IMG/VR virus record: IMGVR_UViG_3300028027_000061
Length of the DNA stretch: 64,000 nucleotides
DNA from: a virus
Reading direction: 5' to 3' (one strand)
In this document: in pieces, positions 144 through 61,954 of the stretch
How the letters are laid out: each line of letters begins with the position of its first letter
How positions within the stretch are numbered: the stretch's first letter is position 1
The notes under the pieces: model-generated
Told to the model about the DNA's origin: nothing
Seen by the model: only the letters and a program-made list of their open reading frames with translations
The model's database searches: none
Position numbers and translations under genes: made by a program

Positions 144-218
144 GCAGGATTAGCTCAGCGGTAGAGCATCTCGTTTACACCGAGGCGGTCGGCGGTTCAA
201 TCCCGTCATCCTGTACCA
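144..218 (+). tRNA. tRNA-Val (anticodon TAC)
   Basis: Cloverleaf folds by eye. Acceptor gcaggat/atcctgt, anticodon loop tttacac, T-loop ttcaatc, encoded CCA. Confidence 0.7.
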
Positions 219-219
219 G

Positions 220-295
220 TGCCCCATGGTGCAATTGGCAGCACGTCTGATTTTGATTCAGAAGGTTCCACGTTCGAGTCGTGGTGGGGCATCCA
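220..295 (+). tRNA. tRNA-Gln (anticodon TTG)
   Basis: Acceptor tgcccca/tggggca, anticodon stem tctga/tcaga with loop ttttgat, T-arm ccacg-ttcgagt-cgtgg, CCA present. Confidence 0.7.
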
Positions 296-300
296 GATTA

Positions 301-390
<90 letters not shown>

Positions 391-397
391 TAATAAA

Positions 398-434
398 AAG
401 TGCCAAGGAAAAAAACTTGGCACTTTTTTTATTT
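398..434 (+). terminator. rho-independent terminator after tRNA cluster 1
   Basis: Hairpin gtgccaag-(loop)-cttggcac followed by T7-ATTTT. Confidence 0.6.
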
Positions 435-436
435 TA

Positions 437-469
437 GGGCTTGACAATTTCTACATTTCGAGGTATAGT
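437..469 (+). promoter_or_regulatory. early sigma70-like promoter (GGGCTTGACA-N17-TATAGT)
   Basis: TTGACA at 441-446 and TATAGT at 464-469. Member of a repeated promoter family. Followed by RBS aaaggaaat and an ATG. Confidence 0.6.
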
Positions 470-496
470 GATATTATAGTTTGAAAGGAAATCGTT

Positions 497-682
497 ATGG
501 AAGTTTTTGTTTTGAAGGGTGGCATCGGGGTTCAGTTGGGCGTCTATGCATCTGAAGATGAAGCACGGGATGCCCACGGTGTATACATTCGTGACGGCGG
601 TCGGTTCCTCGATTCCTACTATATCGTGCGGCAAGTAGTTGGTGCAACTGCAGATGCCGATGCGGATCGGATCTGGATCTAA
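497..682 (+). CDS. small protein, first of three tandem paralogs (MEVFVL...GVYASEDEA)
   Basis: ORF with RBS aaaggaaatcgttATG just downstream of the promoter. Paralogous to 699-902 and 924-1100. Confidence 0.5.
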   Translation: MEVFVLKGGIGVQLGVYASEDEARDAHGVYIRDGGRFLDSYYIVRQVVGATADADADRIWI

Positions 683-698
683 AGAAAGGAAATTGGTT

Positions 699-902
699 AT
701 GGAAGTTTTTGTTTTGATGGGTGCGATGGATCACGATGCGCATTACGTTCTTGGTGTTTATGCTTCTGAACAAGAAGCAGTAGATGCTTTGGGTGTTTAC
801 CTTCGTGACCTCGATGAATCGTGGCATGATGAGTATTATGTCGATCGCCGTGTGCTCGGTGCACATGCGGAATATGATTCCGATCCTCATCGGTACCTCT
901 AA
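699..902 (+). CDS. small protein, tandem paralog 2 (MEVFVLMG...GVYASEQEA)
   Basis: Same N-terminus and same RBS (aaaggaaattggttATG) as 497-682. Confidence 0.5.
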   Translation: MEVFVLMGAMDHDAHYVLGVYASEQEAVDALGVYLRDLDESWHDEYYVDRRVLGAHAEYDSDPHRYL

Positions 903-923
903 AGTTTTTATGGAAGGTTGATT

Positions 924-1100
924 ATGCAAGTTTATGTCGTGAACAATGAATCTCCTGGTGGAGATCACTCGATTATGGTTGGTATCTACTCGACCGAAGA
1001 AAAGGCGAGAGAGATGATCAAATTCTTGGAACGTGAAACTCCTGAATGGTATCCTACCTACTCAGTTGAAGACGTTGATCCAGAAGATCCGATGTATTAA
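924..1100 (+). CDS. small protein, tandem paralog 3 (MQVYVVNN...GIYSTEEKA)
   Basis: Shares the V-hydrophobic-x-x-G-hydrophobic-Y-[AS]-[ST]-E-[DEQ]-[EK]-A motif. The track start at 918 is a TTG, so the ATG at 924 is the more likely start. Confidence 0.45.
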   Translation: MQVYVVNNESPGGDHSIMVGIYSTEEKAREMIKFLERETPEWYPTYSVEDVDPEDPMY

Positions 1101-1105
1101 AGTTT

Positions 1106-1181
1106 AGACGAGTAGCTCAATGGTTAGAGCCGACCGCTCATAACGGTTTGGTTGGGGGTTCGAGTCCCTCCTCGTCTACCA
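1106..1181 (+). tRNA. tRNA-Met (anticodon CAT)
   Basis: Acceptor agacgag/ctcgtct, anticodon loop ctcataa, three G-C pairs in the anticodon stem, T-loop ttcgagt, CCA. Confidence 0.7.
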
Positions 1182-1241
1182 GTTAGGGTTGCTACTTAAT
1201 AGGCACGCGAGGAATCACGGTTAGTTCCTCAACCAGTTTAC

Positions 1242-1317
1242 GGATCATTAGCTCAGTTGGTAGAGCAGCGGACTCTTAATCCGCTTGTCGTAGGTTCGAT
1301 CCCTACATGATCCACCA
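1242..1317 (+). tRNA. tRNA-Lys (anticodon CTT)
   Basis: Acceptor ggatcat/atgatcc, anticodon stem gcgga/tccgc, loop ctcttaa, T-loop ttcgatc, CCA. Confidence 0.7.
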
Positions 1318-1322
1318 GTTTC

Positions 1323-1398
1323 GGACGCTTAGCTCAGTAGGTAGAGCAACGGGCTTTTAACCTGTTGGTCCTGGGTTCGAGTCCCAGAGCGTCCACCA
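1323..1398 (+). tRNA. tRNA-Lys (anticodon TTT)
   Basis: Acceptor ggacgct/agcgtcc, anticodon loop cttttaa, T-arm ctggg-ttcgagt-cccag, CCA. Confidence 0.7.
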
Positions 1399-1415
1399 TT
1401 TTAAAGGAGTTTGTT

Positions 1416-1592
1416 ATGAGTAAAATGATACTTGCATTTCTGTTCATTTTTACCTGTGTGTTCTTCGGTATTCAAATTGTTCGCGATTTGAATAAATCTG
1501 AAAAATTAAGCTTGACTAAATTGCTTGCTTATAGTATAGTGTGTACTGTGATTACGATGGTCGTGATTACTTCAATTGTTTTGATTTTCTAA
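1416..1592 (+). CDS. small hydrophobic membrane protein
   Basis: RBS aaaggagtttgttATG. Two predicted TM stretches. The track's N-terminal extension overlaps the tRNA and is rejected. Confidence 0.45.
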   Translation: MSKMILAFLFIFTCVFFGIQIVRDLNKSEKLSLTKLLAYSIVCTVITMVVITSIVLIF

Positions 1593-1606
1593 GGAATAAA
1601 GTTATT

Positions 1607-2404
1607 ATGAAAAGTGTTACTAAAGTCGTTCTTCTCGCTGGTCTGATGGCAACGACTGCTGCCTGTACTCGTATTGAAACAGGTGAAGTTGGTGTTCGGC
1701 GTTCGTTCGACAAGACCATTGAAACTACTGAGTTGATGCCAGGATCAATCAACCAGACAATGTTCGGTGATGTTATGACATTCCCAACCAAGGACGTGCA
1801 GGTTGATGTTTCTGACTTGACTCCACTTGCGTCGGACAACTCGACAGTTGCTGACTTTGACATGGCAGTAATCTATTCGATTAATCCTGGTTCGGTTGCC
1901 GAACTGTATATCGAAAAGAATCGTGGTTTCCATGCTGACACTGAAGAAGGCGATACACTTTTGATGTATAATTACATTCGTCAGTTGGGTCGTAATGCTG
2001 CCTACAAGGTTGCTCGTCGTTACGAGTCATTGAAGATGGCAGACAATCGTGCTGAGATTGAGCAACTGGTTCGCCAAGAGATTGTCGCGCAACTTGCTTC
2101 TGAGAAACTCGATGGTGCTATCTCGATTTCACAGGTTCTTGTTCGTCAGGTAAAACCTGCTGCGAATATCGTAGCGTCTGCTAACCAACTTGTCCAGGCA
2201 CAAAACGCTGAGAAGCAGAAGTTGGTAGAGGTTCGTACCGCAAAGTTGGAAGCAGAACGTATTGCTGCTCTTAATGCCAACGCTGGTGCTACTAAATACA
2301 TGGAAGCAACTGCTCTCGTGACAATCGCGGAAGCAGTTAAGGAAGGTAAGGTTTCTACCATTATTGTTCCTTATGACTTCAAGGGTATCGTGAACGTCAA
2401 GTAA
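1607..2404 (+). CDS. SPFH/band-7 (prohibitin/HflKC-like) lipoprotein
   Basis: Signal peptide with lipobox (LAGLMATTAAC). Central SPFH-like region followed by a coiled-coil A/E/Q-rich tail. Confidence 0.5.
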   Translation: MKSVTKVVLLAGLMATTAACTRIETGEVGVRRSFDKTIETTELMPGSINQTMFGDVMTFPTKDVQVDVSDLTPLASDNSTVADFDMAVIYSINPGSVAELYIEKNRGFHADTEEGDTLLMYNYIRQLGRNAAYKVARRYESLKMADNRAEIEQLVRQEIVAQLASEKLDGAISISQVLVRQVKPAANIVASANQLVQAQNAEKQKLVEVRTAKLEAERIAALNANAGATKYMEATALVTIAEAVKEGKVSTIIVPYDFKGIVNVK

Positions 2405-2413
2405 GTTTGAATG

Positions 2414-2499
2414 GAAGGTGGGCAGGACGGTAATGCAACGCACTGCTAATGCGTCTACCAGAAATGGTAGAGTGGGTTCGACTCCCACACCTTCCGCCA
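2414..2499 (+). tRNA. tRNA-Ser (anticodon GCT), class II
   Basis: Acceptor ggaaggt/accttcc, anticodon loop ctgctaa, long variable arm, T-arm gtggg-ttcgact-cccac, CCA. Confidence 0.7.
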
Positions 2500-2500
2500 T

Positions 2501-2578
2501 GGTGGATGTAGCTCAGTTGGTTAGAGTGTCGGCTTGTGATGCCGAATGTCGCGGGTTCAAGTCCCGTCATTCACCCCA
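2501..2578 (+). tRNA. tRNA-His (anticodon GTG) with encoded G-1
   Basis: Extra 5' G followed by acceptor gtggatg/cattcac. C discriminator (a His identity element). Anticodon loop ttgtgat. CCA. Confidence 0.7.
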
Positions 2579-2579
2579 T

Positions 2580-2655
2580 GGGGATGTAGTCCAAAGGCAG
2601 AGACAGAGGACTTAAAATCCTTCCAGTGTGGGTTCGAGTCCCACCATCCCTACCA
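2580..2655 (+). tRNA. tRNA with anticodon TAA (Leu by anticodon) but class-I architecture, with no long variable arm
   Basis: 76 nt. Acceptor ggggatg/catccct, anticodon stem gagga/tcctt with loop cttaaaa, 5-nt variable loop, T-arm gtggg-ttcgagt-cccac, CCA. Leu/Ser/Tyr tRNAs normally have a long arm. Confidence 0.5.
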
Positions 2656-2659
2656 TTTC

Positions 2660-2735
2660 GCGTCTGTAGCTCAGTTGGTAGAGCACTCCCCTGATAAGGG
2701 AGAGGTCGCAGGATCGAGGCCTGCCAGACGCACCA
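2660..2735 (+). tRNA. tRNA-Ile (anticodon GAT)
   Basis: Acceptor gcgtctg/cagacgc, anticodon stem ctccc/gggag with loop ctgataa. T-loop atcgagg is unusual (A at position 54). CCA. Confidence 0.65.
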
Positions 2736-2737
2736 AT

Positions 2738-2809
2738 GCCAGCAGTGCAAGTGCACGACTGACTCTCATAAGGTTGGTTCGGTAGGAGCGTTACCTACTG
2801 CTGGTACCA
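2738..2809 (+). ncRNA. degenerate tRNA-like element or small stable RNA (72 nt, ends ...tgctggtACCA)
   Basis: 7-bp acceptor-like pairing gccagca/tgctggt plus ACCA, and a CAT-containing loop. The D and T arms are non-canonical. Confidence 0.3.
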
Positions 2810-2810
2810 T

Positions 2811-2888
2811 GTCACGATGGCAGAGTGGTCCAATGCACAGGTCTGCAAAACCTGAAAACCGTGGGTTCGAATCCCACTCGTGACTCCA
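2811..2888 (+). tRNA. tRNA-Cys (anticodon GCA)
   Basis: Acceptor gtcacga/tcgtgac, anticodon stem caggt/acctg with loop ctgcaaa, T-arm gtggg-ttcgaat-cccac, CCA. Confidence 0.6.
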
Positions 2889-2905
2889 TTCTAAAGGAAT
2901 ATATA

Positions 2906-3142
2906 ATGACAGATGTTATTGCAATTGATAAGTATCGTTTGTTGGTTGAGCGTATCGAAACCATTGAACAAGAAATTGATGCCAAGAAACTAGATCGTAA
3001 GAATGTTTACGCTGATGTTAAGAGCGAAGGTTACGATGTTAAGGCAACTCGCCAGATTATTCGCCTCCGCAAAAAGGAAGCGCATGTTCGGCAAGAAGAA
3101 GATATGATTCTTGAAACATATCGCACTGCTATTGGTCTATGA
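2906..3142 (+). CDS. gapR: GapR/DUF2312-family DNA-binding protein
   Basis: 78 aa. ...LLVERIETIEQEIDAKKLDRKNVYADVKSEGYDVKATRQIIRLRKKE... resembles the alphaproteobacterial nucleoid protein GapR (recalled as IERIERLEEEK...DVYAEAKGNGFD.K.LRK...LRK). RBS aaaggaatatataATG. Confidence 0.65.
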   Translation: MTDVIAIDKYRLLVERIETIEQEIDAKKLDRKNVYADVKSEGYDVKATRQIIRLRKKEAHVRQEEDMILETYRTAIGL

Positions 3143-3147
3143 TTTAT

Positions 3148-3222
3148 GGCCCCGTCGTCTACTGGCTAGGACACGTCACTTTCACTGACGAGAAGGCGGA
3201 TCGAAACCGCTCGGGGCTACCA
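3148..3222 (+). tRNA. tRNA-Glu (anticodon TTC)
   Basis: Acceptor ggccccg/cggggct, anticodon stem cgtca/tgacg with loop ctttcac, T-arm ggcgg-atcgaaa-ccgct, CCA. Confidence 0.65.
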
Positions 3223-55074: not shown

Positions 55075-55989
55075 ATGCAAATTAAAAGATTAGATTATGG
55101 TGCAGTAGAAGTTTTGGGATTTGATATCACAAACTTCACACAGGAAGACAGTAATTATATCCGAGAATTGCTGTTAAAAGAATTAATTGTAGTGTTTAGA
55201 GAACAGGATACTAACACTTTAAATTTCGCAAGAATGATTCACGAGATTGGTGACATTGCTAATTGGAATCAATTAAGATTTGACTTTGATGGTAATATGC
55301 GCCCAATGCTTACAGAGTATCCTGACATACATAACTGGGATAAATCGGAATTTTTCCCAATACAGGCAGTGACTGGTAAGAAATCGAAAGATGGACAATT
55401 CACTGGGATTTTCCCTCTCGGTAAACTAGATTGGCATTGTAATCTCAATGGTCCAGATCGTGCCGATGGTGTTGCATTGCAAGGCATCAAAGGCGTAGAA
55501 GGAACTCGAACATCTTGGATGAACACTGCTATCGCATTAGCAGAAATGCCAGATGAATTGTATGAACGAGTAAAAGGTAAGTATGCGAACTTTCGGTATA
55601 ACTTCTTAAAATGGTCTGATGTAATGGACGAACGTCAGCGACAATACATGCTAAAGAATCAGCATGAATATAAGATGTGGTTAGAGCAAGAAAATGCTGG
55701 TGGTATCAAGGGTATCTATCTCTACACCAATAATGATTGTGAGATCGAAGGTGATGATGGATCATTGTTCCAAGATTTACAAGACTACTTCTTTCAAGAA
55801 AAGTTTTTATATCATCACGACTGGAAAGTTGGTGACATTGTTCTTAGCGACCAGTTATTGACATTACACAAGCGTCGACAAGAGGTTGATCAGGTTTTTG
55901 AGAATAGACTACTAAATCGACTGACATTTAAACTCTCCAATACGGGCGATCCACTGTATATCGTGGAAAGAAATAAGTTTGATGTTTGA
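55075..55989 (+). CDS. TauD/TfdA-like 2OG-Fe(II) oxygenase (tentative)
   Basis: WHCNLNG ... D ... H spacing reminiscent of TauD. Weak. Confidence 0.3.
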   Translation: MQIKRLDYGAVEVLGFDITNFTQEDSNYIRELLLKELIVVFREQDTNTLNFARMIHEIGDIANWNQLRFDFDGNMRPMLTEYPDIHNWDKSEFFPIQAVTGKKSKDGQFTGIFPLGKLDWHCNLNGPDRADGVALQGIKGVEGTRTSWMNTAIALAEMPDELYERVKGKYANFRYNFLKWSDVMDERQRQYMLKNQHEYKMWLEQENAGGIKGIYLYTNNDCEIEGDDGSLFQDLQDYFFQEKFLYHHDWKVGDIVLSDQLLTLHKRRQEVDQVFENRLLNRLTFKLSNTGDPLYIVERNKFDV

Positions 55990-56197
55990 AACTAAAACAC
56001 GAACTTTAGTTAGAGGTATTTCATATAGAGTATCTGCATGGTTATTCACAATTCTGTGGACATATCTGTTCACTGGAAATATTGGTGAAGCGACAGGATT
56101 TTCAACTATCCTACATTTGATGTTGAGTATAGACTACTACGTTCACGAAAGAATTTGGTTGAAAATTAAATGGGGAACTTTAGGAAAAAATACTTGA
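55979..56197 (+). CDS. small membrane protein
   Basis: 72 aa, two TM helices. Confidence 0.3.
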   Translation: MMFETKTRTLVRGISYRVSAWLFTILWTYLFTGNIGEATGFSTILHLMLSIDYYVHERIWLKIKWGTLGKNT

Positions 56198-56222
56198 CTT
56201 TCAAAGAAATCTATAGTATAAA
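56194..56222 (+). promoter_or_regulatory. promoter TTGACT-N17-TATAAA driving the tmRNA precursor
   Basis: Same family as the early promoters. No ORF follows. A structured RNA follows. Confidence 0.5.
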
Positions 56223-56225
56223 TAA

Positions 56226-56727
56226 TATATCAGTTGTTGATACAATCTGAATGCTGCGTAGGACAGGGGTGCAACTCCCCTCGCCTCCACCATAGATAAA
56301 GCAACAGGGACTATACAGCGTACGTAATATAGGAACTGGCTGACCGCATGGCTTGCCCCAAGGGATAATGTTTGGGGGCGTCGTAACTGGATGGGAGTCA
56401 TGACCTTGGATGTTACTTCAAGTTGGTGCTTTATCTATGATGGGGGCGTACTTAGGATTCGACTGCGAGTTGAAGGCGAGAGTAGACTGATTGACTGGGT
56501 AAAGTGCCCACAAAAAGTAAATGCAAACGATAACGTTGCCTTTGCAGGATATGCGCTAGCCGCATGATCCCATTGGGTTTTTGATAGTTTTTCCTCGAAA
56601 CAGAATAAAACTATCAACCGTTCGATTAAACGGGTGGACCGAGTTGCTCTGCGGTTCTATGCTTATAAATATTTGCATAACCCACTACGCCTCTACTTGA
56701 AAAAGCACGCATAGTGGGTTTTTTTTG
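56226..56727 (+). ncRNA. ssrA: circularly permuted (two-piece) tmRNA gene: acceptor piece about 56230-56292, intervening segment, coding piece from 56442. Tag ORF 56523-56567 (ANDNVAFAGYALAA*).
   Basis: 3' piece ...ggacaggggtgcaactcccctCGCCTCCaCCA (T-arm plus acceptor 3' strand plus ACCA, ending at 56292). 5' piece GGGGGCGtacttaGGATTCGAC (56442-). This gives a 7-bp acceptor stem with a G3:U70 wobble, the AlaRS identity element. Resume codon GCA and a tag ending ALAA-stop. Terminator at 56681-56727. Confidence 0.7.
56681..56727 (+). terminator. rho-independent terminator of the tmRNA transcript
   Basis: Hairpin cccactacgc ... gcatagtggg followed by T8. Confidence 0.6.
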
Positions 56728-56797
56728 TCTTCGGGCAACCAGTGTGGGGAGTCACTGGATAATACCCTCTCAAGTTTAACAAGTATTAGGAAATAAG

Positions 56798-57403
56798 ATG
56801 ACTTCCTTTAACAAGAAGTTTTTCAAGTTTCTTTCGATTTTTACAGTATTAGTATATAGTTTATATGGAATCAATTCATATGCTGAAGATGCTATCGAGA
56901 GAGATACGAGGGAATATTCCCTCGGCTTTGTAGAAGTAATCCAAGAGATTAAAGAAGATGCGGCAGAAGAAAAGAAGAAAACCGCACTAAGAAAAATTGA
57001 AACCCAAAACATACATTTAGCAAATAATCGCGAATTGAAGTGTCTAGCAGACAATATTTACTACGAGGCAGGAAACCAGTCAACTCAAGGAAAGTTGGCG
57101 GTTGCTGCAGTAACTATCAATCGCGTAAAAAGTCCCAAGTTCCCGAAGTCTGTATGCGCAGTCGTGTATCAGAGAACTAAGCGTGTTTGCCAGTTCTCAT
57201 GGGTATGCGAAGGTAAAAAAACTGTGCGCAGTGCCCAGCAATATTCAGAATCTAAAAAAGTTGCTGAAAAAGTATTGCTTTCTGGGGCAAATCACGGTAT
57301 ACTTGGACGTAACGTGCTATTCTACCATGCGGATTATGTAAATCCAAGATGGAACTTGAGGCGTGTTGCGAAAATCGGTGATCACATTTTTTATGCAGGA
57401 TAA
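56798..57403 (+). CDS. secreted SleB/Hydrolase_2-family cell-wall hydrolase (endolysin candidate)
   Basis: Signal peptide. Domain LAVAAVTINRVKSPKFPKSVCAVVYQ ... QFSWVCEG typical of SleB-like lytic transglycosylase/amidase_2. Confidence 0.6.
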   Translation: MTSFNKKFFKFLSIFTVLVYSLYGINSYAEDAIERDTREYSLGFVEVIQEIKEDAAEEKKKTALRKIETQNIHLANNRELKCLADNIYYEAGNQSTQGKLAVAAVTINRVKSPKFPKSVCAVVYQRTKRVCQFSWVCEGKKTVRSAQQYSESKKVAEKVLLSGANHGILGRNVLFYHADYVNPRWNLRRVAKIGDHIFYAG

Positions 57404-58286: not shown

Positions 58287-58463
58287 ATGGGTAACTCAAG
58301 AAGTAGGGACTATTGGGGAAATGATGAACCAAAAGTAAGAGAAGTACGTAAAGGTGTTGATAAATCAAATAAACACCGCAAGAACCTGTATAAATACTCA
58401 GGTAGTAATGATGCTGAAGAGTATGACGACTACGATGATTATGATACAAATCGCAAATACTAA
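58286..58463 (+). CDS. small acidic protein (58 aa)
   Basis: ORF between 59 and 32. Confidence 0.3.
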
Positions 58464-59419: not shown

Positions 59420-59450
59420 CTTGGGGGAGCGTTTCGCTCCCCCATTTCAT
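59420..59450. terminator. bidirectional rho-independent terminator between convergent genes
   Basis: Perfect hairpin gggggagcg-tttc-cgctccccc flanked by A-run and T-run. Confidence 0.6.
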
Positions 59451-61954
59451 TATGCTACTGCTCTTTTTTCCTGGAATCTCAACCACGTGCTATCAGTTGG
59501 TCTTGCGTTGATATAATCTCTACCAGAACCAAACACAGGAGATTGCTGCGTATTGGCAGGTGCTTGAATTACTGTTGGTGGTGGCACGTTTATTACTGGT
59601 GCAGCAGATTTAGCAGTCATATCAGTACCACGTTCAATTACTGCGCCATCTAGATTTCTTCCAGTTTCCAATCCTGCAGTCTTACCGACTGGTTTAATTT
59701 GTGAACCAGAATATTCACCAGATGCCATTTTTTCTTCAGTACTATCAACCAACCCAAAGGTCAACCCACTCGCAATATTTCTTCCTGCGTTGAGGAATTT
59801 TTGCCCTGTTGTTGCCTTTTCGTCTGCATTAAAACCTTTATAAGCATCGTATGCTGCCATACCTGCTGCGAGTGGTAAAGCAACTTTACCCAATACTCTA
59901 CCAGCAAATCTTCCTGCAGTTCCTAACCGTCTTCCAGCGGAACCAAGGAACGAAGATGCTTTAGCAGGCATTTTTTTCGCAGAACCCATAACTCTATTGA
60001 ACATGCTCGGTTTTTTCGCAGCACCAGCAGCAGTAGCACCAACAGCGCCTGTTGCCGCAGTAGATGCTAAAGAAGAAGTAGGTGCAGATGTAGGTGCAGA
60101 TGTAGGTGCAGATGTAGGTGCAGATGTAGGTGCAGATGTAGGTGTGTCGCCAGGAAGCGCATTGAGATCTCTCGCTGCCAAACCAGCATCAATTCCTAGT
60201 GAAGCTGCAGTTCCCAAAAACGGAACAGTTCCTGCTGCTCCTGATGCAACTTCTAATCCTGCGCCAACAAAGTCTCCCTGCAATGCTCTTTGTGCGCCAA
60301 AACCAAGGCCAGCAAGTATACTTACGCCTGGAATTTTTTTCAGTAGTGACTTACCTGCTGCCTTTGCACCGAGTTTACTTGCGCCAGATTTACCTATCCC
60401 AGTAGCACCCTTTACTTTATCCCATGCGTTGGACCAGAAACCACCTTTTGGTTTTGCTGATGGGACATCATTTGCAGCAGGAGGAATATTTGGTCTAGTT
60501 CTTGTAGAAGGTTCCGCAGTTCCTGGTTTTTTGGGTGGAGTTTTTTCTTCTGTTTCTGGACCTTGATATGTTGGGCGTTCGTTTACTCTCTTTTTTTGTT
60601 CCTCAACCATTCTGTCATCATCATTGGCAGCCGGAGGAATTTTTACTCCAGGATCATTCGCAGGAGTTGGTAAGGTTCTACTTGGTGTTTGTCCTGGAAC
60701 AGTTTTGGGTGCTTGACCTGGAACAGTTTTGGGTGCTTGACCTGGAACTCGAGTTACATCGTTCGCTGGGGCGTTTGGTGTGGTTCTTGTTCCTGGCATA
60801 GATTCGGGTGCACCGACACTCGATTTGCCGAACCCAAGTTTATCCTTTGCCCAATCCCAAGCACCAACTGCACCTGCTGCTAAACCAGCGGCTGCAGCAG
60901 CACCAGCAGCAAGAATACCAGTTCCTCTGCCTCTCACTCTTGCTCTTTGACTTTGTCCAGGTCTTCTTCGTGGGTCCGGAAGATCTATATCCGGAACAGG
61001 ACTATCACCCGTGCATTGACATGAACAAACACAATCTTTAATTTTGTTCAACATATCCATGAGGTCTGACCAACGAGTTTCCCATGGATCCATGGCGTCA
61101 GTAGCACTTCTGCTAAATGCAGGATCAGTTTCTCGGATTCCGGATTTTAATTCTTCTATATCGCTTCTTGATACCGCATCGGGTTTATTATCAGGATTTG
61201 ATAGACTTGTTGTTTGTTCTCCACCACCAGTTTCAAACTTATCTTGATCGGGCGAATTGGTATTCGATGAATTGACAGAATCTAATATTTTTCCAAAATC
61301 ACTGGCGCTGGACTCAGCGAGAGCAACTTTTTTGTTTTCGTAATCTGCCTTTGCTCGTATTCTTTCTCTTCTCTCTTCATCCTTAACAAAACTGCCACCA
61401 AGACCTTTTCTGAACCCATATGAAAAGTCTTTCAAGACGGATCCAAATATGCTAGTCCCTTGCACCTTTGCCTCGGCAGGCGTCTTCCCTGTGACATTAC
61501 GCATAAAGCGATTTTTGAATGTATCCTGATCACCCGTAAGCGTGGCGTTTGCGTCCTGGAATTTTTCTTGTAGAACAGATTCTTTTAATCGTTCACCAAC
61601 ACTCTTTAGTTGTTCATTGCCAGATTTATCTGCAGAAAGCATTATCTTTTCAGCAAGTTCTGCGAGACGCTTTAACTCTTCAGAATTTTTACCTTGAAGT
61701 TTGCTGATTTCTTTTACTACATCTTTCAATAATGTTTTGTCTTCATCAACAAGATTTTCTACTAGATCTTTGTTTGCAAGTTCTATTGATTTTGCAAAAT
61801 CAGTTACGATTCTTGCAACTGATGTATCAGAAACAGATTTCATTGACTCCGTGCTAACAGATGCAAGAACTTTAACGAGAATTTCGTCTCGTTGTTCAGG
61901 TGTCAGTTTCTGCGCACCCTTTTTAGTATTTTCTTGTTCAATATTAGGCAACAT
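59450..61954 (-). CDS. large virion protein with helical N-terminus and Gly/Ala/Pro-rich repeat region (tape-measure-like)
   Basis: 834 aa. Coiled-coil N-terminal third. Hydrophobic G/A stretches (GILAAGAAAAAGLAAGAVGAW). Tandem peptide repeats (TSAP)x5 and (QAPKTVPG)x3 encoded by nucleotide tandem repeats. Confidence 0.45.
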   Translation of the reverse strand: MLPNIEQENTKKGAQKLTPEQRDEILVKVLASVSTESMKSVSDTSVARIVTDFAKSIELANKDLVENLVDEDKTLLKDVVKEISKLQGKNSEELKRLAELAEKIMLSADKSGNEQLKSVGERLKESVLQEKFQDANATLTGDQDTFKNRFMRNVTGKTPAEAKVQGTSIFGSVLKDFSYGFRKGLGGSFVKDEERRERIRAKADYENKKVALAESSASDFGKILDSVNSSNTNSPDQDKFETGGGEQTTSLSNPDNKPDAVSRSDIEELKSGIRETDPAFSRSATDAMDPWETRWSDLMDMLNKIKDCVCSCQCTGDSPVPDIDLPDPRRRPGQSQRARVRGRGTGILAAGAAAAAGLAAGAVGAWDWAKDKLGFGKSSVGAPESMPGTRTTPNAPANDVTRVPGQAPKTVPGQAPKTVPGQTPSRTLPTPANDPGVKIPPAANDDDRMVEEQKKRVNERPTYQGPETEEKTPPKKPGTAEPSTRTRPNIPPAANDVPSAKPKGGFWSNAWDKVKGATGIGKSGASKLGAKAAGKSLLKKIPGVSILAGLGFGAQRALQGDFVGAGLEVASGAAGTVPFLGTAASLGIDAGLAARDLNALPGDTPTSAPTSAPTSAPTSAPTSAPTSSLASTAATGAVGATAAGAAKKPSMFNRVMGSAKKMPAKASSFLGSAGRRLGTAGRFAGRVLGKVALPLAAGMAAYDAYKGFNADEKATTGQKFLNAGRNIASGLTFGLVDSTEEKMASGEYSGSQIKPVGKTAGLETGRNLDGAVIERGTDMTAKSAAPVINVPPPTVIQAPANTQQSPVFGSGRDYINARPTDSTWLRFQEKRAVA

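Follow-up and report, generated by a model that had tools for sequence, protein, structure and literature searches.

The stretch of viral DNA analyzed here, IMG/VR record IMGVR_UViG_3300028027_000061, is 64,000 nucleotides (nt) long (in the following called the window) and belongs to a T4-like phage. For its positions 56194–56727 an initial annotation, made from the sequence alone, had proposed a gene for a circularly permuted, two-piece transfer-messenger RNA (tmRNA, encoded by ssrA). On the plus strand we find a promoter, an acceptor piece, a hairpin-closed spacer, a coding piece and a terminator in this order (Table 1), which from the sequence are predicted to form a single transcription unit. 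The two halves occur in permuted order, the 3' (acceptor) one preceding the 5' (coding) one: the encoded CCA ends at 56292 and the first nucleotide of the coding half, G1, is found at 56442. All elements listed in the initial annotation could be re-verified base by base where it had placed them. Judging from these sequence features and the comparisons described below, the region very probably represents an ssrA gene of the phage that is functional and circularly permuted and belongs to the alphaproteobacterial type.

Table 1: Features of the tmRNA locus and sites of its promoter family in the window.
Feature	Position	Strand	Details
Sigma-70-type promoter	56194–56222	+	-35 TTGACT 56194–56199, 17-nt spacer, -10 TATAAA 56217–56222
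Acceptor piece, 64 nt	56229–56292	+	ARAGORN 3' tRNA domain, Rfam alignment, verified pairings, covariation
Outer P2 strand AUCAGUU	56229–56235	+	pairs with GACUGAU 56485–56491
Inner P2 strand CGUAG	56257–56261	+	pairs with CUGCG 56463–56467
T-arm AGGGG/UGCAACU/CCCCU	56265–56281	+	in the acceptor piece
Acceptor 3' strand CGCCUCC	56282–56288	+	followed by ACCA 56289–56292
Intervening segment, 149 nt	56293–56441	+	predicted to be excised; from the fold
Closing helix of the spacer, 11 bp	56293–56303 with 56427–56437	+	UAGAUAAAGCA with UGCUUUAUCUA, 11/11 pairs
Leader UGAU	56438–56441	+	end of the spacer, directly before G1
Coding piece, 5' end	56442–56491	+	ARAGORN 5' tRNA domain, Rfam, pair counts
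Acceptor 5' strand GGGGGCG	56442–56448	+	G3 in the G:U pair
D-loop analogue UACUUAGGAUUCGA	56449–56462	+	directly after GGGGGCG
Hairpin UGGG-UAAAGUG-CCCA	56496–56510	+	upstream of the resume codon, at the expected position of pseudoknot 1
Tag reading frame	56523–56567	+	resume codon GCA at 56523, ANDNVAFAGYALAA, stop UGA
Hairpin 3' of the tag	56583–56615	+	stem GAUAGUUUU/AAAACUAUC, loop UCCUCGAAACAGAAU
Intrinsic terminator	56679–56726	+	9-bp basal stem (56679–56687 with 56712–56720), branched loop, U8 run
Promoter-family sites	10245, 21217, 21496, 23509, 23804, 26380, 27929, 52619, 54166, 56194, 58120	+	

Identification of the permuted tmRNA

ARAGORN, which had been suggested as a check of the prediction, called a permuted tmRNA ('tmRNA*', flagged 'Permuted') at 56200–56658 with the same tag, ANDNVAFAGYALAA. 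In a search of the whole window the Rfam model RF04321 (tmRNA_permuted) gave 83.9 bits against a gathering score of 47 (E = 1.3e-14), its match spanning 56232–56567 and covering the full model positions 1–213. The transcript of 497 nt folds with a z-score of -4.83 relative to shuffled sequences, and both the acceptor stem and the terminator are part of this fold. The identity as a permuted two-piece tmRNA is therefore supported by two independent detectors as well as by covariation and by the synteny with a published phage SsrA, both of which are described below.

To compare the gene among related viruses we used the cell-wall hydrolase encoded downstream of it. More than 558 IMG/VR contigs encode this protein; 80 loci were fetched, and counts of conservation were limited to the 66 of them having at least 650 nt of sequence upstream of the hydrolase gene. 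A permuted tmRNA is located at the same position in all of these 66 syntenic loci.

Conservation of the RNA structure

The acceptor stem between GGGGGCG and CGCCUCC, on which the initial annotation had staked its reading together with a T-arm preceding the CGCCUCC-A-CCA end, consists of seven standard pairs out of seven with a G:U as the third, followed by an encoded discriminator A and CCA. This alanine identity pair, G3:U70, is invariant in all 29 distinct copies that we aligned after joining acceptor and coding pieces and removing the spacer (alignment A1). Using RNAalifold on A1, the acceptor stem, the T-arm, the outer P2 helix and the hairpin 3' of the tag were recovered independently. 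In the named structure 99.4% of the alignment cells are paired, compared with 36–56% when the partners are slid by one to three columns, and 12 pairs show changes on both sides, a number of compensatory changes that was matched by none of 500 shuffles. Two compensatory pairs each fall into the acceptor stem and the T-arm, with the outer pair of the T-stem occurring in four pair types. As MAFFT left the inner P2 helix out of register between different types of the tRNA-like domain, this helix was tested by anchor-based extraction: its sequences differ completely between the domain types, and cognate strands form 5–7 bp, whereas non-cognate combinations reach 3.1 on average.

Both hairpins of the coding piece are conserved as well. 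The one upstream of the resume codon, a helix in the RNAalifold structure, is paired in 97.7% of the cells and includes one compensatory pair, and the one 3' of the tag is paired in 98.7% with changes on both sides at six of its eight pairs. The loop of the latter, UCCUCGAAACAGAAU, is near-invariant in the relatives and matches the alpha-tmRNA consensus motif CCUGGCAACAGAA when aligned to the positions of the Rfam model RF01849 (alpha_tmRNA). The conserved 3' motif CCUNGNAACAGAA and the tag start ANDN represent the alpha-type features of the window copy. The substitution pattern indicates that these RNA helices are under purifying selection across a large phage lineage.

The tag reading frame

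As had been annotated, the frame opens with the resume codon GCA and encodes a tag ending with ALAA followed by UGA (Table 1). Among the syntenic relatives we found the tags ANDNVAFALAA, ANDNVAFAGYALAA, AANDNVAFEMRLAA, ANDNFASEMRLAA, ANDNSTMDIALAA and ANDNNVAFALAA. Five nucleotide versions of ANDNVAFALAA differ at synonymous third positions only, and every length difference between the tags of the relatives is a multiple of three. From these synonymous-only changes and in-frame insertions and deletions it appears that the tag peptide itself is under purifying selection.

Promoter and terminator

The region had been ascribed to a promoter of a phage early family, and indeed sites of the type TTGAC-N18-TATAAT occur 11 times on the plus strand of the window, the tmRNA promoter included, where 1.05 are expected by chance, and only three times on the minus strand. 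Their spacing is N17–19 and most of them share AGTATAAT or GGTATAAT as extended -10. This family is visible only with the looser pattern, since a search for the exact promoter pattern with at most one mismatch matched only the tmRNA site in the window (0.91 expected). Both hexamers hold their position in all 39 distinct relatives, and the sequence between them varies. The transcription start is predicted near A56229, about 7 nt past the -10 hexamer, which coincides with the start of the P2 pairing, so that the acceptor piece may need no 5' trimming. The strong terminator that had been noted after the tag was recovered in the minimum-free-energy fold and its stem pairing was checked; a simple consensus terminator scan found none at the locus, as its loop is long. 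The relatives possess different terminator stems in the same layout.

Proposed function and alternative explanations

For the action of this gene we propose the following model. The unit would be transcribed by the host RNA polymerase early in infection, and the closing helix of the spacer would bring the two halves together. RNase P would cut between U56441 and G56442, after the UGAU leader, thereby creating G1, and 3'-processing enzymes would trim the acceptor piece to its encoded CCA, so that two RNAs would remain, joined through the acceptor stem and P2. For the two pieces to stay paired after processing, the sequence offers the prerequisites, namely the acceptor stem and two P2 helices. 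The host alanyl-tRNA synthetase would then charge the RNA through G3:U70, and with SmpB of the host it would enter stalled ribosomes, where translation would be resumed at GCA and the tag ending with ALAA would direct the product to host proteases. By analogy with the known tmRNA pathway, SmpB of the host is the most likely partner of the RNA, acting with it early in infection. The most likely benefit for the phage would be free ribosomes and the recycling of amino acids at a time when decay of host mRNA and host shut-off yield many non-stop messages. The tmRNA mechanism as it is understood is unchanged by our results.

Some observations weigh against a functional two-piece tmRNA. The search with RF01849, which had been suggested as a further check, gave 49.2 bits for the window copy and thus 0.8 bit less than the gathering score of 50. 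Nevertheless, none of the three clade models scores higher than RF01849 (the beta and cyano models gave lower scores and were suppressed as clan overlaps), and relatives reach 117.6 (L091), 81 (L086), 65.8 (L007), 55, 53.2, 47.5 and 44.5 bits (L009). Since L007 combines the tRNA-domain type of the window with a spacer of 74 nt and scores 65.8 bits, whereas L009 with a spacer of the window's family (151 nt) scores 44.5 bits, the shortfall is most likely due to the long 149-nt spacer and the divergent T-loop rather than to non-membership. Furthermore, no partner for pseudoknot 1 was identifiable by inspection. In the precursor, ACCA can pair with the UGAU leader at three of four positions, which may bear on cleavage by RNase P, so that together with the closing arms of the spacer the acceptor stem would be extended almost continuously. 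Finally, no SmpB gene was found in the 64-kb window by tblastn with an E. coli SmpB sequence as query (best E = 0.14), which makes the function of the tmRNA dependent on a host factor.

The RNA could also be directed mainly against the host instead of serving in rescue, either by blocking host trans-translation through titration of SmpB or competition with the host tmRNA, or by using a putatively phage-specific tag that would send tagged host proteins to another fate. A molecule of mycobacteriophage DS6A that consists of the tRNA-like domain only can inhibit tmRNA, possibly via SmpB titration (PMC4131195, PMC11915505), and Buchholz et al. also propose selective tagging for the recycling of amino acids (PMC9004378). 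In addition, the phage tags end with ALAA or RLAA while the closest bacterial tags that we found end with AAAA, AVAA or similar, and phages that are nearly identical carry several types of tag. However, the tag frame found here is under purifying selection, for which a mere SmpB decoy would have no use, and all canonical functional elements are intact, which makes SmpB titration unlikely as the main function. We therefore regard a host-directed role as improbable.

Far less probable still is a decayed or passive piece of a host ssrA without function for the phage, such as an integration or excision event at a host tmRNA gene might leave behind. It is true that tmRNA genes are common integration sites and that phages often carry ssrA fragments (PMC9004378, PMC4131195), and the tag start ANDNVAFA is common to bacterial alpha tmRNAs. 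Yet the gene is a complete one that possesses the tag, the two halves of the tRNA-like part, and a promoter and terminator of its own, it has been retained in every one of the 66 loci, its compensatory changes and the synonymous-only changes of the tag point to ongoing selection, and it is embedded in a T4-like module for replication and late transcription with no integrase nearby. Just as hard to believe is an ordinary small protein gene with merely incidental tRNA-like features, translated from its own ATG as the 58-codon open reading frame (ORF) 56391–56567 (MGVMTL...ANDNVAFAGYALAA): this ORF does exist in frame with the tag, and before the resume codon of the window copy 195 nt are free of stops in this frame. 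Its ATG, however, sits in the hypervariable spacer, an in-frame ATG before the resume codon is missing from 35 of the 39 distinct relatives, most relatives have the frame closed 9–30 nt ahead of that codon, and the number of nucleotides between G1 and the resume codon is frequently not divisible by three. Neither Pfam nor PHROG gave a match to the ORF, and the strong RNA covariation would be left unexplained. Conventional translation of the tag ORF, which the initial annotation had named as a possible objection, was rejected on account of the missing conserved upstream ATG and the frame being closed in most relatives.

Comparison with known phage and bacterial tmRNAs

Two-piece tmRNAs have been described in phages before, as Buchholz et al. 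counted 53 of them among public phage genomes in 2022, most of them being marine (PMC9004378), and a tmRNA database from 2025 lists 79 phage sequences (PMC11915505). The closest known counterpart is the SsrA of the OM43 (Methylophilales) phage Melnitz (MZ577097, 45984–46436), which like those of the related pelagimyophages HTVC008M and Mosig is permuted, of the alpha type and encoded by a T4-like (Kyanoviridae-type) phage (PMC9004378). In Melnitz the gene order is PhoH, PDDEXK nuclease, two small ORFs, SsrA, gp33, gp59 and gp32, and this is the same slot as in the window, where the tmRNA lies behind its sigma-70-type promoter between the genes for PhoH and the PDDEXK nuclease and the group gp33-gp59-gp32. 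Both genes show a -10 TATAAA just upstream of the acceptor piece, a similar hairpin 3' of the tag (loop AAACAGAA in Melnitz) and related tags of 14 residues with the form ANDN...YALAA, that of Melnitz being ANDNYVPVDYALAA. The Melnitz spacer of 142 nt (149 nt in the window) is closed by the arms TAAACACTT and AAGTGTTTA and ends with the same UGAU leader. Nevertheless, both pieces are only about 70% identical at the nucleotide level, there is no match at the level of BLAST, and the T-loop GGCAGUA of Melnitz is alpha-typical while UGCAACU of the window is divergent. Melnitz reaches 113.4 bits with RF04321 and 106.7 bits with RF01849, compared with 83.9 and 49.2 bits for the window.

The two loci differ in further respects. 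In Melnitz a glutamine riboswitch follows right after the tmRNA (RF01739, 52.8 bits), whereas a search of 55900–57000 for RF01739 or RF01704 revealed none at E values up to 10; such a riboswitch at the 3' end is reportedly common in the pelagimyophage-type group without defining it. A gene for a SleB-type hydrolase between the tmRNA and gp33 is present in the window and absent from the Melnitz order, and for gp59 of the window the identity to any cultured phage does not exceed about 41%. The occurrence of a two-piece tmRNA in this neighbourhood of marine T4-like phages is thus already published and the window holds its counterpart, by position and structure, in a different, uncultured lineage; new are the lineage without a cultured close relative and the markedly mosaic locus. 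With its presence in all 66 loci, the two-piece tmRNA cassette of the marine SAR11 and OM43 myophages is also fixed in another abundant, uncultured T4-like lineage, and this fixation in a second lineage strengthens the case for selection on trans-translation capacity in this phage group. Moreover, comparison across the population supports both the RNA structure and selection on the tag with unusual clarity.

Other known phage tmRNAs take a different form. The mycobacteriophage Bxz1 group and Bacillus phage G encode one-piece, unpermuted tmRNAs and belong to other phage families with other hosts (PMC4131195, PMC11915505), although they resemble the phage of the window in being large and having many tRNA genes. 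The DS6A molecule has no tag frame, in contrast to the gene described here with its tag frame under selection (PMC4131195, PMC11915505).

In bacteria, the two-piece tmRNA of Caulobacter is reportedly the prototype, going back to Keiler, Shapiro and Williams in 2000. The gene of the window shares with the alphaproteobacterial two-piece tmRNAs (RF01849) the order of acceptor piece, spacer and coding piece, the encoded CCA and G3:U70, and the bacterial tags found, ANDNVAFAAAA and ANDNVAFAVAA, are of the same ANDN type. Also common to both are a hairpin-forming spacer and the conserved 3' motif CCUNGNAACAGAA. The phage gene is distinguished by being encoded by a virus, by its phage promoter family and by the fixed UGAU leader.

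Evolutionary origin and host

The coding pattern of the tag was searched for in 185,579 species genomes, which gave 56 loci. Real tmRNAs with tags starting with ANDNVAFA were found in Alphaproteobacteria only and all of them are permuted, their sources being metagenome-assembled genomes (MAGs) of Rhodospirillales, Hyphomicrobiales and Rickettsiales, several of them from lakes. The many matches in Sphingorhabdus and other Sphingomonadales were rejected as host candidates, as no Rfam RNA was present and they are coincidences within protein genes. The tRNA-like domain of the phage type represented by L090–L092 is 88% identical to that of a Rhodospirillales tmRNA, and the type of the window is 77% identical.

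From the permuted order the initial annotation had deduced a link to alphaproteobacteria. Concerning the type of the RNA this is supported, RF01849 being the best clade model and the tag starting with ANDN, but concerning the host it is unsafe: Melnitz has an alpha-type SsrA and yet a methylophilalean host (PMC9004378), and the type of the tmRNA is thus weak evidence for the host. The GapR homologue mentioned in the same context is present at 2936–3136 between the genes for tRNA-Cys and tRNA-Glu (E = 3e-7 against a Caulobacter GapR query), and it lends some support to an alphaproteobacterial host.

Regarding the habitat, many of the related viral contigs carry IMG dataset numbers between 33000423xx and 33000448xx, the range of the MAGs from the Lake Mendota time series (for example ME2017-11-03_3300044655). 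The bacterial tmRNAs having the closest tags come from lakes as well (Kivu, Baikal), whereas the ENA sample codes of identical contigs gave no hint of the environment. By these identifiers alone the lineage is probably a freshwater one.

The intervening spacer

Excision of the spacer would be analogous to the precedent of Caulobacter, where the corresponding segment is removed. The 32 distinct spacers of the relatives have lengths of 5–151 nt and share no sequence relationship, but almost all have complementary arms at both ends, with a mean of 11.7 pairs between cognate ends against 5.0 in chimeric controls, and 28 of the 32 carry the UGAU leader immediately before G1. Bacterial permuted genes of the alpha type have hairpin spacers too, although those seen measure 5–45 nt, in contrast to the much longer, hypervariable phage spacers, and lack the UGAU leader. 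A paired spacer is therefore a general property that is exaggerated in these phages and not a phage novelty.

A second GGGGGCGU lies within the spacer of the window (56374–56381), followed by a stretch loosely resembling the true 5' end (GGGGGCGUCGUAACUGGAU compared with GGGGGCGUACUUAGGAU), and it is also conserved in L009, whose related spacer measures 151 nt. A duplication or recombination may have left it behind, or it may offer CGCCUCC another strand to pair with.

One class of spacers, 133–134 nt in length, contains a ribosome-binding site AGAGGAAA, an ATG and a Cys-rich ORF of 40 codons, MVICSCRDIRDSQYTNREELRARILEDDFCCGTCQDEFLV, which runs on into the GGGGG of the tmRNA. It was found in at least 18 related contigs (L024, L025, L040, L050, L077, L164–L181), and there is no copy of it in the window. 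Its substitutions, [1,1,10] and [0,3,10] for the three codon positions, are mostly at third positions, and by this bias it looks like a genuine gene nested in the excised spacer. No tblastn match to it was found in cultured phages, and neither this ORF nor those in the spacers of the window and of Melnitz gave a significant match in Pfam or PHROG; the Cys-rich protein may be Bfd-like. The contig L183 (IMGVR_UViG_3300010885_082206), a viral contig of higher G+C content, encodes a stand-alone homologue (MIVCMCRDIRSSEYDSEDELRARILEPDQICGQCQQQY...) at about 1200–1370 with 58% identity and its own promoter-like site, and some 350 nt further downstream another permuted tmRNA follows (1510–1916, tag ANDDVYAEDLALAA). 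With nested and stand-alone copies, the Cys-rich protein appears to be tied to phage tmRNA genes in two arrangements. The Melnitz spacer (L163, 6078–6219) likewise has GGAG, an ATG and an open frame of 54 codons running into GGGGG, in the same frame (GAU GGG GG) as the accidental ORF of the window and the Cys-rich ORF; this may be due to chance.

It is conceivable, if rather unlikely, that the spacer serves as a cargo slot: the tRNA-processing cuts giving rise to the mature tmRNA would at the same time free its contents. In favour of this, spacers have been swapped freely between phages with the closing helix and the UGAU leader being retained, the Cys-rich gene in its at least 18 contigs has its own ribosome-binding site and a coding signature, and its homologue adjoins another phage tmRNA. 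If so, the gene would be a cassette with dual output, and the cargo in the window would be a structured RNA of 149 nt containing the second GGGGGCGU.

Mosaicism of the locus

The tmRNA locus is a mosaic. L021 encodes a hydrolase 100% identical to that of the window, yet has an unrelated spacer of 67 nt and the tag ANDNVAFALAA, and phages with hydrolases of 97–99% identity possess a quite different tRNA-like domain (type B). Conversely, the hydrolases of L009 and L093 are only about 52% identical, yet both show the same spacer family and tRNA-domain type as the window, combined with another tag. Promoter, acceptor domain, spacer, tag and 3' modules seem, from their distribution, to recombine independently, and the locus is a recombination hot spot in which acceptor-domain types, spacers and tags are reshuffled among near-identical phages. 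A BLAST search in distant mode against 50,697 phage records gave no match to the locus, and with the spacer removed and E values up to 1 only chance-level matches of 37 nt and no close copy in cultured phages were obtained.

Genomic context

Upstream of the tmRNA the window encodes PhoH, a PD-(D/E)XK nuclease, a TauD-family dioxygenase and a DUF2061 protein, and downstream the SleB-type cell-wall hydrolase, the late-transcription coactivator gp33, the helicase loader gp59 and gp32. Nucleotide matches to deposited phages are confined to gp32 (74–80% identity, cyanomyophages), which together with the divergent gp59 marks a lineage with no cultured close relative. Twelve tRNA genes are located at 144–3222 (Val, Gln, Ser x2, Met, Lys x2, His, Leu, Ile, Cys, Glu).

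Two further ORFs in the neighbourhood may be mentioned. On the minus strand, 59450–61954 encodes 834 residues with low-complexity repeats (APTS x5, PGQAPKTV x3, Ala/Gly-rich hydrophobic stretches), which is conserved as a gene of 822 residues without Pfam match in identical contigs. Between gp59 and gp32 lies an ORF of 58 residues (58287–58463) that recurs at its position in every near-identical contig, and the corresponding interval of Melnitz contains small ORFs, too.

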